Sequence record: PP418985.1
DNA from: Escherichia phage UPWr_E1
Direction: 5' to 3' (one strand)
DNA length: 64,000 nt
The notes below the pieces were generated by a model. That model had not been told where the DNA came from. It worked only from the letters and a program-made list of their open reading frames with translations, and ran no database searches. A program made the translations under genes and the position numbers. Every line of letters starts with the position of its first letter. Position 1 is the first letter of the stretch. Shown here in pieces: positions 10,817 through 63,973 of the stretch.

Positions 10817-10844
10817 TTGACATAAAAGGGAGATTCTCTATAAT
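10817..10844 (+). promoter_or_regulatory. Sigma70-type early promoter (TTGACA-16-TATAAT)
   Basis: Canonical -35 and -10; the -10 lies in the loop of inverted repeat GGGAGA/TCTCCC, which is followed by a T-run. Confidence 0.6.
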
Positions 10845-10878
10845 GGGAGTCTCCCTTTTCTTTTATGAGGATTTAATA

Positions 10879-11185: not shown

Positions 11186-11214
11186 TTGACACTGGATCGG
11201 GGATATATCATAAT
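11186..11214 (+). promoter_or_regulatory. Sigma70-type early promoter
   Basis: AAAAAGTTGTTGACA then 17 bp then CATAAT; GGGGA/TCCCC inverted repeat flanks the -10. Confidence 0.6.
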
Positions 11215-11244
11215 GTCCCCATCGAAAACAAAAGGTTGACTTAT

Positions 11245-18521: not shown

Positions 18522-18550
18522 TTGACACCAGAACAAGGGAGTAGTAACAT
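18522..18550 (+). promoter_or_regulatory. Sigma70-type early promoter with -10 inside a hairpin
   Basis: TTGACA-17-TAACAT; GGGAGTA/TACTCCC inverted repeat encloses the -10. Confidence 0.55.
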
Positions 18551-18581
18551 ACTCCCACACCAAACAAAAGGAGAATCAAAG

Positions 18582-19032: not shown

Positions 19033-19033
19033 T

Positions 19034-19061
19034 TGACGCCAAAGGTCGTCGGTAGTAAGAT
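19034..19061 (+). promoter_or_regulatory. Sigma70-type early promoter with -10 inside a hairpin
   Basis: TTGACG-16-TAAGAT; GGTAGTA/TACTCCC. Confidence 0.5.
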
Positions 19062-19094
19062 ACTCCCATACCGAAACGAAAGAAGGAGAATCAC

Positions 19095-19317: not shown

Positions 19318-19346
19318 TTGACAGGGGATCGCCGATCCCCTACAAT
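19318..19346 (+). promoter_or_regulatory. Sigma70-type early promoter with palindromic double-GATC spacer
   Basis: TTGACA then GGGGATCGCCGATCCCC then TACAAT. Confidence 0.65.
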
Positions 19347-19377
19347 GAACTCATCAAGACAACGAAGGAGAATCAAA

Positions 19378-19541: not shown

Positions 19542-19570
19542 TTGACACCGGATTAAGGGAGTAGTAAGAT
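19542..19570 (+). promoter_or_regulatory. Sigma70-type early promoter with -10 inside a hairpin
   Basis: TTGACA-17-TAAGAT; GGGAGTA/TACTCCC. Confidence 0.6.
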
Positions 19571-19604
19571 ACTCCCATCAAGACAAAACACTGAGGAATA
19601 TATT

Positions 19605-46231: not shown

Positions 46232-46261
46232 TTGACACTGAATAACGGGGGGTAGTAATAT
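46232..46261 (+). promoter_or_regulatory. Sigma70-type early promoter with -10 inside a hairpin
   Basis: TTGACA-18-TAATAT; GGGGGTA/TACCCCC. Confidence 0.55.
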
Positions 46262-46294
46262 ACCCCCATCGAAACGAAACAAAGGAGAATCAAA

Positions 46295-46513: not shown

Positions 46514-46542
46514 TTGACAGCATGAAACGGGGGTAGTAATAT
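46514..46542 (+). promoter_or_regulatory. Sigma70-type early promoter with -10 inside a hairpin
   Basis: TTGACA-17-TAATAT; GGGGGTA/TACCCCC; near-identical to the 46232 copy. Confidence 0.6.
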
Positions 46543-46583
46543 ACCCCCATCGAAACGAAACTAACTTACTAAGGAGTATCAAG

Positions 46584-46982
46584 ATGATTAAATTTCAAAC
46601 TCGCAAAGACGTTCTGGATTTCGTTAAAGTTTTCGGTTACGCTGCATTGCAACATGCAATGGACAAAATGACCATCTCCCCAGATCAGACTATGCTGATC
46701 CGTATGGTTAAAGCAACCGCCTACAAAAACGACATTACCCTCTCAGAAATCAACGACGGTAATACTGTCCGCGAGGTAATTGTTTCTTTCGAATCACCGA
46801 AAATTGGCGGTTTTCATACCACGATGTTAGGTGAAATCACTGTCACTGTATACGGGCAAGGTGGAGGAGTGTTTACCGTCAAAGAAGCAATGGAAAACGG
46901 AACACTGAACAAAGAAAAACTGGAATTTGTCCTGAAAATCATCAAGGAGCGTAACGAAGCTCGCGATATTCTGGAAAGTTAA
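46584..46982 (+). CDS. Hypothetical protein
   Basis: 132 aa; promoter 46514-46542 upstream; terminator downstream. Confidence 0.45.
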   Translation: MIKFQTRKDVLDFVKVFGYAALQHAMDKMTISPDQTMLIRMVKATAYKNDITLSEINDGNTVREVIVSFESPKIGGFHTTMLGEITVTVYGQGGGVFTVKEAMENGTLNKEKLEFVLKIIKERNEARDILES

Positions 46983-53896: not shown

Positions 53897-54365
53897 TAAT
53901 GAAGGGGCGAAAGCCCCTAAACCTAAAAAATTGTCAAAGAAAGAGCAACGCCAGATCCTGAAAATGAAATACGGTGGACGTTGTGCCTATTGTGGCGAGG
54001 AACTAGGGGATCGCTGGCACGCAGACCACATCAAACCAGTATTACGACGCTCAAAAGTAGTCTATGATGAAAATGGACGAATTGCCCGTAATGATGATGG
54101 ATCGTGGAAGTATAAGGTTGTAGGAATGCATAAACCGGAGCATGATATACTTGATAACATGAATCCGGCGTGTGTGCAATGCAATCTTTATAAAAGCTGT
54201 ATGGGCTTAGAATACTGGCGTAAGTGTATACGCGAGAACTTCCAGAAGTACATTCAGCGCAATATGGGATTGCGAGCGGCTAAACGCTTTGGCTTACTGT
54301 CAATCCACGATCAGCCAGTAGAATTTTATTTCGAAAAGTACGAGCGCGAGCATCAAGAAAAATAA
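53889..54365 (+). CDS. HNH endonuclease
   Basis: CAYCGEELGDRWHADHIKP ... NMNPACVQCN: HNH with zinc-binding cysteines; overlaps ligase stop. Confidence 0.7.
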   Translation: MCDNEGAKAPKPKKLSKKEQRQILKMKYGGRCAYCGEELGDRWHADHIKPVLRRSKVVYDENGRIARNDDGSWKYKVVGMHKPEHDILDNMNPACVQCNLYKSCMGLEYWRKCIRENFQKYIQRNMGLRAAKRFGLLSIHDQPVEFYFEKYEREHQEK

Positions 54366-54378
54366 TTCAAAAAAGTTG

Positions 54379-54407
54379 TTGACAGGGGATCACCGATCCC
54401 CTATACT
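54379..54407 (+). promoter_or_regulatory. Sigma70-type early promoter with palindromic double-GATC spacer
   Basis: TTGACA then GGGGATCACCGATCCCC then TATACT. Confidence 0.6.
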
Positions 54408-55596: not shown

Positions 55597-55625
55597 TTGA
55601 CAGGGGATCGGTGATCCCCTATAAT
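55597..55625 (+). promoter_or_regulatory. Sigma70-type early promoter with palindromic double-GATC spacer
   Basis: TTGACA then GGGGATCGGTGATCCCC then TATAAT. Confidence 0.65.
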
Positions 55626-55830: not shown

Positions 55831-55859
55831 TTGACAATGATTAAAGGGAGTAGTAAGAT
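55831..55859 (+). promoter_or_regulatory. Sigma70-type early promoter with -10 inside a hairpin
   Basis: TTGACA-17-TAAGAT; GGGAGTA/TACTCCC. Confidence 0.6.
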
Positions 55860-55892
55860 ACTCCCATCAAGACAACAAACGGAGAATCAAAA

Positions 55893-57374: not shown

Positions 57375-57403
57375 TTGACATAAGATCGGGTGTATAGCAT
57401 AAT
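57375..57403 (+). promoter_or_regulatory. Sigma70-type early promoter with -10 inside a hairpin
   Basis: TTGACA-17-CATAAT; GGGTGTAT/ATACACCC. Confidence 0.6.
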
Positions 57404-57449
57404 ACACCCATCGAAACGAGATACACTTTCTAACTAGGAGAATCAAATT

Positions 57450-58093: not shown

Positions 58094-58117
58094 TTTTATT
58101 AGCCGACCTTAGTGTCG
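58091..58117 (+). terminator. Rho-independent terminator (PeSL-type cassette)
   Basis: AGCCGAC-CTTAGT-GTCGGCT followed by TTTTTATT; promoter follows. Confidence 0.75.
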
Positions 58118-58151
58118 GCTTTTTATTGCCAAAAATTTTTTAAAAAAGGCA

Positions 58152-58180
58152 TTGACACCAGATCCTGTATATAGCATAAT
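58152..58180 (+). promoter_or_regulatory. Sigma70-type early promoter
   Basis: TTGACA-17-CATAAT directly after terminator 58091-58117. Confidence 0.6.
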
Positions 58181-58606: not shown

Positions 58607-58632
58607 GCCGACCTTAGTGTCGGCTTTTTTAT
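58607..58632 (+). terminator. Rho-independent terminator (PeSL-type cassette)
   Basis: GCCGAC-CTTAGT-GTCGGC followed by TTTTTTATTT; same hairpin as 58091. Confidence 0.75.
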
Positions 58633-61244: not shown

Positions 61245-61252
61245 AAAAGTTG

Positions 61253-61281
61253 TTGACAGGGGATCATCGATCCCCTATAAT
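61253..61281 (+). promoter_or_regulatory. Sigma70-type early promoter with palindromic double-GATC spacer
   Basis: TTGACA then GGGGATCATCGATCCCC then TATAAT. Confidence 0.65.
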
Positions 61282-61313
61282 ACACACATACCGAAACGAA
61301 AGGAGAATCAAAC

Positions 61314-61493
61314 ATGAAACACTTAACCATCGAATCGGCAATCATCGCAATCGCTAAAGTTCAAGCGGCTTATAATTGCACTGACATTGAAGCCATTTCA
61401 AAAATGCAAGCAGAAGCCGCAAAAGCAGGTGACGAGAAATCTTTAGATGTTCTCTGCGAAATCAAAGCAGAATTAATTTCAAAAATGTTCTAA
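61314..61493 (+). CDS. Hypothetical small early protein
   Basis: 59-aa ORF read by hand, downstream of promoter 61253-61281. Confidence 0.4.
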   Translation: MKHLTIESAIIAIAKVQAAYNCTDIEAISKMQAEAAKAGDEKSLDVLCEIKAELISKMF

Positions 61494-61499
61494 AAGTTG

Positions 61500-61528
61500 T
61501 TGACATAACAGAGGGTGTATATCATAAT
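61500..61528 (+). promoter_or_regulatory. Sigma70-type early promoter with -10 inside a hairpin
   Basis: TTGACA-17-CATAAT; GGGTGTAT/ATACACCC. Confidence 0.6.
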
Positions 61529-61564
61529 ACACCCATACCGAAACGAACTACTAAGGAGTATCAA

Positions 61565-63912: not shown

Positions 63913-63941
63913 TTGACTCAAACGGGGACTAGTTTTATACT
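63913..63941 (+). promoter_or_regulatory. Sigma70-type early promoter
   Basis: TTGACT-17-TATACT inside an imperfect inverted repeat CGGGGACTAGT/ACTAGCCCCG. Confidence 0.5.
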
Positions 63942-63973
63942 AGCCCCGTTTTCTGTTATATGGGAGGTTTAAA

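Follow-up and report, generated by a model that had tools for sequence, protein, structure and literature searches.

A set of near-consensus promoters in Escherichia phage UPWr_E1 carries the -10 element inside a G-rich/C-rich inverted repeat, and these sites almost certainly belong to the promoter-early stem-loop (PeSL) family. They were analysed in a stretch of 64,000 nucleotides (sequence record PP418985.1), called the window below, in which position 1 is the first letter. The observation is real but already known, PeSLs having been described in 2010 for RB49-type T4-like coliphages. The reading adopted here, which is probably correct as a whole, is that the sites are PeSLs of the -10-overlap subclass, that the hairpin forms in read-through RNA and insulates early transcription units by attenuation or termination, and that the cassettes aid recombination. 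What is added to the published picture is incremental, and consists of covariation of the stem across 24 genomes, a bias toward G·U over A·C mismatches, and a mutual exclusion between embedded stems and T-tract terminators.

The PeSL family and related elements

PeSLs were defined in the coliphages RB49 and phi1 (Arbiol, Comeau, Kutateladze, Adamia, Krisch 2010, Genome Biol Evol 2:140; PMC2839356), where about 50 are present per genome, mainly in hyperplastic regions and upstream of ORFans. In each, a sigma-70 consensus promoter is accompanied by an A/T-rich stretch and by a stem-loop, frequently of the polyG/polyC type, and the cassettes were described as a promoter combined with a terminator or attenuator. 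Five subclasses were distinguished by the position of the stem, the commonest being those in which it lies between the -35 and -10 elements or overlaps the -10 box (PMC2839356).

Reporter assays reported in the same paper (PMC2839356) bear on both halves of the cassette. On the promoter side, PeSL206/205, which is of the spacer class, gave about 13,000 Miller units, and PeSL193/192 (GGGAGT/ACTCCC, overlapping the -10) yielded clones only when the -35 or the -10 was mutated, a restriction that the authors ascribed to extreme promoter strength. On the terminator side, the stem-loop of PeSL211/210, called SLS211/210 (GGGGATCACGTATCCCC, spacer class), reduced lacZ to an extent similar to rrnB T1. 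That assay is the only published terminator test, and in it the stem was taken out of context and lacZ activity, not RNA 3' ends, was measured (PMC2839356). With a calculated dG of -8.9 kcal/mol, the SLS211/210 stem is weaker than the -10-overlap stems of the window. The text of Arbiol et al. 2010 (PMC2839356) mentions no compensatory change, G·U bias or complementary distribution of terminators, and a literature search turned up no subsequent study of mechanism or transcriptome for either PeSLs or Krischvirus.

The PeSLs of RB49 and phi1 share with the window sites the genus and the loci, the architecture, the hyperplastic location, the -10-overlap subclass and the link to indels. Nothing essential differs, the ORF198 promoter simply carrying another allele. 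All of the sequence-level PeSL features that were tested (promoter, A/T stretch, stem, Shine-Dalgarno sequence with small gene, multiple copies, homology and indel ends) were found at the window sites. The comparison with the PeSL cassettes of T4-type phages that the original prediction proposed has identified the sites as PeSLs of RB49-type phages.

PeSLs of other T4-like phages (Comeau, Arbiol, Krisch 2014, Genome Biol Evol 6:1611; PMC4122927) are, like those of the window, composites of promoter and stem-loop that are located in variable regions and mediate modular gene exchange. Those of PST/T4 and nt-1/KVP40 differ, however, in having another promoter consensus and stems of the form A3-4G3-loop-C3T3-4 or AGNA-loop-TCNT (PMC4122927). 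A more distant parallel is provided by the morons of lambdoid phages, in which, likewise, a small accessory gene carries transcription signals of its own and is insulated from the genes around it. Morons have a separate flanking promoter and terminator and are not thought to drive mobility, whereas in the window cassettes the signals are fused in one conserved repeat that would double as homology for recombination.

Genomic setting

All 58 of the phage records matched by megablast of the 56-60 kb segment are Krischvirus (RB49-like T4-type coliphages), and the closest match to the window is Shigella phage JK32, at 97.5% identity. The 54-64 kb portion aligns with the hyperplastic region of RB49 that extends from gene 30 (DNA ligase) to alt and comprises ORFs 185-212. 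By positional homology, window position 57375 corresponds to the RB49 ORF199/198 intergenic region, 61500 to 186/185, and 55597 to PeSL206/205; the GEC-3S record has a promoter annotated at the position homologous to the 57375 region. The cassettes are intergenic, located between annotated genes in both RB49 and JK32. About 17 stem-bearing cassettes occur in the 64 kb, clustered in the gene 30-alt region and in other ORFan clusters. No stem was found at the promoters of core replication genes, nor at the promoter that heads the rightward unit next to gene 34.

Architecture of the cassettes

The nine coordinates given in the original prediction all mark the first base of the -35 hexamer of a sigma-70-type promoter, with an offset of one base at 19034 (19033). 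Inspection of the sequence confirmed at eight of the nine that the -10 hexamer lies in the loop and right arm of a G-rich/C-rich inverted repeat, which is 7-8 bp long at these sites but 15 bp at 10817 (Table 1). All of the cited promoters are near consensus, with 0-1 mismatch in the -35, a spacer of 16-18 nt, and at most two mismatches in the -10, which carries A as its second and T as its sixth base. In the 20 nt preceding the promoter, A+T makes up 65-90% of the bases (75-90% for the eight intact sites that remain when 10817 is set aside), and the motif AAAAAGT(T/A)G lies immediately 5' of the -35. The stems open with GGG and close with CCC, that is, they are of the G(n)-loop-C(n) type, and a Shine-Dalgarno sequence (GGAG/AGGA) located 17-32 nt past the -10 is followed by the ATG of a small gene. 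The description of the sites as early promoters holds up well, in that they are of the sigma-70 type and match the published PeSL model.

Table 1. Promoter cassettes and related features in the window (dG, or MFE where so marked, in kcal/mol; z relative to shuffled sequences)
Feature	Coordinates	Strand	Elements	Fold
PeSL cassette, 5' of RB49 ORF198 homologue	57375..57409	+	-35 TTGACA 57375-57380; GGGTGTAT 57388-57395, loop AGCATA (6 nt), ATACACCC 57402-57409; -10 CATAAT 57398-57403; predicted +1 57410	dG -13.8, z -5.4
PeSL cassette, 5' of RB49 ORF185 homologue	61500..61534	+	GGGTGTAT 61513-61520, 6-nt loop, ATACACCC 61527-61534; -10 CATAAT 61523-61528	dG -12.1, z -4.6
PeSL cassette, 5' of ORF204 homologue	55831..55865	+	GGGAGTA 55846-55852, TACTCCC 55859-55865; -10 TAAGAT 55854-55859	dG -12.2, z -4.1
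PeSL cassette	18522..18556	+	GGGAGTA 18537-18543, TACTCCC 18550-18556; -10 TAACAT 18545-18550	dG -11.9, z -4.8
PeSL cassette	19542..19576	+	GGGAGTA 19557-19563, TACTCCC 19570-19576; -10 TAAGAT 19565-19570	dG -11.9, z -3.6
Decayed-stem promoter of the same family	19033..19067	+	TTGACG-17-TAAGAT	MFE -6.2 via different pairing, z -0.45
PeSL cassette, 18-nt spacer	46232..46267	+	GGGGGTA 46248-46254, TACCCCC 46261-46267; -10 TAATAT 46256-46261	dG -13.9
PeSL cassette, chimeric	46514..46548	+	GGGGGTA 46529-46535, TACCCCC 46542-46548; -10 TAATAT 46537-46542	dG -14.0
PeSL member beyond the original nine	11186..11220	+	GGGGATAT 11199-11206, ATGTCCCC 11213-11220, 8 bp including one U·G; -10 CATAAT 11209-11214	dG -14.6, z -3.3
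Promoter in hairpin	10817..10866	+	TTGACA-16-TATAAT	dG -23, z -5.5
PeSL member beyond the original nine	63913..63960	+	TTGACT-17-TATACT	dG -18.9, z -6.0
Sister subclass, stem fills spacer; homologue of RB49 PeSL206/205	55597..55625	+	AGGGGATC-GGT-GATCCCCT	
Further spacer-class stems	starts at 19318, 43687, 54379, 59361, 61253			
Terminator, then stemless promoter with the same core	58101..58180	+	hairpin 58101-58120 + T run; promoter 58152-58180	
Same terminator-then-stemless-promoter arrangement	58607/58655 and 45913/45951			

At 57375 and 61500 the promoter has the layout TTGACA-17-CATAAT, the left arm lying in the spacer and the first two bases of the right arm being the final two of the -10. 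The -10 hexamers of the -10-overlap class (TAAGAT, TAACAT, TAATAT, CATAAT) are weaker than those of the spacer class, and both of these common PeSL subclasses are present in the window. Throughout the family the discriminator shows a preference for ACAC(A/C)C, and promoters that have no stem share the C at -3 to -1.

By promoter geometry, the right arm has its last base at -1, and a conserved CAT supplies the A at +1. The same placement follows from the summary of mapped RB49 5' ends in Nolan et al. 2006, which gives RB49 early promoters with C at -3 to -1, in agreement with the mapped 5' ends of early transcripts. The inference that transcription starts 3' of the right arm is thereby upheld. 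Because the right arm ends at -1, the promoter's own transcript should not contain the hairpin, and this geometry fits the earlier proposal that the hairpin could form only in read-through RNA or in DNA. The 5' ends in RB49 were reportedly mapped by Desplats et al. in 2002.

The ninth cited site was correctly recognized as a promoter of the family, but its stem has decayed. At 19033 the left arm GGTAGTA faces TACTCCC with a T·C mismatch inside the stem, and shuffled sequences fold just as well (z = -0.45), and the site was rejected as a member with an intact stem on these grounds. At 10817, the GGGAGA/TCTCCC originally noted is the core of a 15-bp hairpin (approximately 10824-10859) whose 6-nt loop is exactly the -10 TATAAT (10839-10844), and a T-tract (TCTTTTAT) on the 3' side completes the shape of a canonical intrinsic terminator. 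Within 10824-10866, a strong terminator and a consensus promoter share the same 45 bp. The site at 63913 has a bulged 13-bp hairpin (approximately 63920-63951) around the -10, followed by a T-rich tail; an A·C mismatch in this hairpin was only apparent, the base in question being a bulged A.

A separate observation on the spacers concerns GATC, which is enriched about five-fold in them (17 observed versus 3.2 expected) and occurs in 12 of 34 promoters, for example at 57384-57387, 55606-55609 and 55613-55616. Two GATC sites make the stem of the spacer class (GGGGATC...GATCCCC), while in promoters of the 57375 type GATC is located 5' of the left arm, with GAU paired to the AUC of positions +1 to +3.

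Stability and frequency of the stems

Folded as RNA, the seven intact cited sites without a T-tract have dG values of -11.9 to -14.0 kcal/mol; when 11186 is included among the stems without a T-tract, the range extends to -14.6. The z values run from -2.2 to -5.4 in both sets. The frequency of such stems was assessed on 31 curated promoters in the window, each with no more than one mismatch in the -35 and no more than two in the -10, with A/T-rich sequence upstream, and with a Shine-Dalgarno sequence and start codon downstream. Within 35 nt around the -10, 11 of these 31 promoters have a perfectly paired stem of 7 bp or more, compared to 1.3% of random 35-mers from the window. The corresponding binomial p of about 1e-13 is overstated, since the promoters are paralogous copies rather than independent sites, but the excess over chance is not in doubt despite that paralogy. 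The fold dG of the promoters is bimodal, 15 of them lying at or below -10.

Conservation and covariation in relatives

Covariation was counted on true orthologues, using the ORF198 promoter (homologous to 57375) aligned from 24 genomes. The arms are GGGTGTAT/ATACACCC in 12 of the 24, including the window, and GGGGATAT/ATATCCCC in 11, including RB49 and phi1, so that two adjacent pairs are altered on both sides between the two haplotypes (T-A to G-C and G-C to A-T). The remaining contig, with GGGGGTAT/ATATCCCC, pairs by way of one G·U. All 112 of the 112 cells in this alignment pair, none of 500 shuffles matches the covariation score, and sliding the partner by 1-3 columns reduces pairing to 33-64%. 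The inverted repeats are therefore not absent from the homologous promoters of close relatives, the outcome that the original prediction had named as counting against it; they persist in 24 relatives, where changes in one arm are compensated in the other. Three spacer bases adjoining the -35 distinguish the two haplotypes as well, and so the double compensatory change at the 57375 orthologue may represent one patch exchange between cassettes rather than stepwise selection.

Other loci were compared as well. The stem of the ORF185 promoter is kept in five of ten genomes (window, RB49, phi1, JSE and Brandy) and is a 7-bp stem in three (GoldenSnicker, SAP and kvi); as a result of the deletion of ORF186 between two cassettes, the stem of JK32 and G37-3 at this locus is of the spacer class. 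At the 11186 cassette, relatives (loci L030 and L038) have ATATCCCC as the right arm, making the stem fully Watson-Crick. The GGGGGTA/TACCCCC and GGGAGTA/TACTCCC stems differ by a compensatory change of G-C to A-T, and the RB49 orthologue of 46232 combines GGGGGTA with TACTCCC through one G·U. The RB49 orthologue of 55831 has TGGAGTA and a 6-bp stem. Weakened stems are found at RB49 205/204, at window 19033, and in the middle one of three RB49 cassettes at locus L043, the gene downstream of which is absent from the window. A single alignment of all -10-overlap stems anchored on the -10 was tried and dropped, as the centre of the hairpin shifts by one base between CATAAT and TAA(G/T/C)AT promoters.

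In IMG/VR, scanned for more orthologues, the exact 35-nt leader pattern matched one contig, and a degenerate promoter pattern matched 20 stretches, with only three Krischvirus-like contigs; the remaining matches to the degenerate pattern are from unrelated phages, with pairing that is at chance level or uninterpretable. A search of the whole window against Rfam 15 at gathering thresholds gave no covariance-model match. Two IMG/VR contigs from outside Krischvirus (L027, 6983-7019, and L028, 164-200) have TTGACA-17-CATAAT promoters with spacer-filling palindromes (AACTTAAGTT; TTGCAGAATTCTGCAA), and spacer palindromes in strong phage promoters may be spread more widely than the T4-like group.

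Probable pairing in sense-strand RNA and the relationship to terminators

The mismatches inside otherwise intact stems comprise six of the G·T/T·G kind and none of the A·C kind. The six are located at 10817, at 11186, at RB49 193/192 and 187/186, in the ECD7-like ORF198 promoter and in the RB49 orthologue of 46232. Transitions produce G·T and A·C mismatches equally often, yet only the G·U type is seen, and the bias therefore favours pairing in the sense-strand RNA (sign test about 0.016, on sites that are few and related).

In E. coli, an intrinsic terminator is by the standard rule a hairpin followed by a U-run. The window stems resemble canonical Rho-independent terminators in placing a G/C-rich hairpin where a gene ends in the nascent transcript, and at 10817 and 63913, the only sites with the full terminator shape, the likeness includes the T-tract. 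The eight main sites are unlike canonical terminators in that they lack a U-tract and in that the hairpin is interleaved with a promoter. The bases next to these eight stems are AUCGAAACGA, AUACCGAAAC, ACACCAAACA or AUCAAGACAA, and the 10 nt past the stem contain at most 1-2 T residues. Since they have no U-tract, the eight main stems should be poor intrinsic terminators by the hairpin-plus-U-run rule. A terminator scan of 44-64 kb likewise found 57375 and 61500 to be terminator-like on the minus strand only, not on the sense strand.

The distribution of separate terminators is complementary to that of the stems. Canonical T-tract terminators are present within 50 bp upstream of four of the 15 stemless promoters versus none of the 16 stem-bearing ones (Fisher p = 0.043, again on few and related sites). 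They lie 15-50 bp 5' of the stemless promoters 38430, 45951, 58152 and 58655, three of which have the core tagCATAATAC-C-CATCGAAACG in common with 57375. Embedded stem and separate terminator look interchangeable. One terminator hairpin with its T run (GCCGACCTTAGTGTCGGC) was seen in two copies (58101-58125 and 58607-58630) that are 506 bp apart, each 30-50 bp 5' of a stemless promoter of the same family, an arrangement that amounts to a terminator-then-promoter version of the cassette.

Possible roles of the hairpin

A mechanism that would account for these features begins with a near-consensus sigma-70 promoter, which the host RNA polymerase would use, in its unmodified form, early in infection. 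The cassette is ordered as A/T-rich stretch, promoter, G(n)-loop-C(n) hairpin, conserved leader, Shine-Dalgarno sequence and small gene, the last mostly of unknown function. The hairpin would form only in RNA that reads through from the upstream gene, and most likely insulates neighbouring early transcription units, so that read-through transcripts would be attenuated or ended exactly at the start of the next transcript. The original prediction had raised the possibility that termination is coupled to re-initiation, and this matches the promoter plus terminator/attenuator model of Arbiol et al. 2010, here extended by inference to the -10-overlap stems. For the latter, action as an attenuator or terminator is plausible and somewhat favoured.

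It is also possible, though unlikely, that the hairpin does not stop polymerase and instead works on the RNA once it is made, protecting a 3' end or forming a barrier to processing: following read-through or cleavage by an endonuclease, the G/C-rich stem would block 3'-to-5' exonucleases and so set the stability of the mRNA of the upstream small gene. Stems without a U-tract would suit such a role, and the published assay read lacZ activity and not termination; the compensatory change and the G·U bias indicate structure in sense-strand RNA but are silent on its job. However, T-tract terminators take the place of the stem in otherwise identical cassettes, which suggests that the two are functionally interchangeable, and a stabilizing hairpin alone would not cut downstream lacZ to the level of rrnB T1.

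A related and slightly more doubtful idea is that the -10-overlap stems are a distinct non-terminator RNA device, present only in read-through transcripts and having its 3' edge at the -1 of the next promoter. This idea arises because the stems lack a U-tract and yet vary in a compensatory way and favour G·U on the sense strand. Upstream small genes might owe their processed 3' ends or the stability of their mRNA to such a device, or the device could pause polymerase over the promoter and so coordinate read-through with fresh initiation.

The remaining alternatives fare less well. The inverted repeat might function at the DNA level, as a hairpin or cruciform or as the site of a phage protein, to target recombination (via PeSL mini-circles) or to mark promoters. 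Indel ends are indeed located inside the cassettes, and Arbiol et al. (PMC2839356) speculated that the GGGG...CCCC motif may bind a recombination protein. Nevertheless, this explanation is improbable, because the arms vary widely (GGGTGTAT, GGGGATAT, GGGGGTA, GGGAGTA, GGGGATC, GGGGAG) while pairing is kept, which argues against sequence-specific recognition; because a DNA element would have no strand bias, whereas the sense strand has G·T and never A·C; and because the recombination joints, in the cases seen, are in the A/T-rich or leader parts and not in the stem. Arms of 7-8 bp with a 6-nt loop are, moreover, short for cruciform extrusion. The earlier suggestions of a mark for a specific factor or of a cruciform accordingly found no support.

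It is more improbable still that the arms tune the promoter through the composition of spacer and discriminator, complementarity being secondary; such tuning would affect open-complex lifetime, supercoiling, sensitivity to ppGpp/DksA or the response to Alt/Mod ADP-ribosylation. The right arm does coincide with the ACAC(A/C)C discriminator preference, C being found at -3 to -1 even in stemless promoters, and the -10-overlap promoters do have weaker -10 hexamers than the spacer class, but tuning leaves unexplained both the tracking of the right arm by the left through two-sided changes and the existence of several stem positions relative to the hexamers. Finally, the notion that the stems have no function and are simply inherited along with a promoter cassette propagated by duplication and gene conversion draws on the clear paralogy of the promoters, the block-exchanged look of the haplotypes and the decay of some copies, but it is very hard to credit when at least six different arm sequences in at least two positions are all still complementary, decay is mostly to G·U or at stem ends, and stems are missing exactly where a separate terminator exists.

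Proposed recombination between cassettes

Besides insulating transcription units through a hairpin in read-through RNA, the PeSLs are proposed to aid recombination: a conserved cassette of about 100 bp would supply the homology by which small genes are inserted, deleted or swapped. Where relatives differ in gene content, the differences have their ends within promoter cassettes. Brandy (L007) lacks ORF210/211 (compared with window 54300-54400), JK32 and G37-3 (L003/L006) lack ORF186 (compared with window 61250-61540), and ORF191/192 is missing from both the window and JK32. RB49 and KFS-EC have an extra small gene (its product starts MNNF) with its own cassette between those at 46232 and 46514, and this gene is missing in the window. 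Comparison of 46514-46600 with loci L043 and L044 indicates that the 46514 cassette is chimeric, one gene having been deleted between two PeSLs with the joint in the conserved leader. These cassette-bounded indels fit the published model of modular shuffling.

The conserved transcribed leader starts exactly at the predicted +1 in about 20 of the 31 early promoters. It has the form ATCGAAACG at 57410, 58187, 58690, 45986, 46268 and 46549, ATACCGAAACG at 19068, 54414, 59038, 61288 and 61535, and ATCAAGACA at 19353, 19577 and 55866. In the 64-kb window, every copy of ATCGAAACG and ATACCGAAACG is found at a predicted +1, as are three of the four copies of ATCAAGACA, the fourth (59242) not being beside a listed promoter. 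The leader may be a part of the recombination homology of about 100 bp, or it may be a signal in the 5'-UTR.

Significance for RB49-type phages

By covering a wider set of genomes than the original two, the comparison provides sequence-level support for a role of the PeSL stem in sense-strand RNA. It also yields natural stem variants that make a clean set for testing. If the -10-overlap stems were to prove a non-terminator device, they would represent a new mode of insulation in the densely packed early regions of phage genomes. For annotation, the cassettes mark the boundaries of early transcription units, and likely recombination joints, in Krischvirus genomes.
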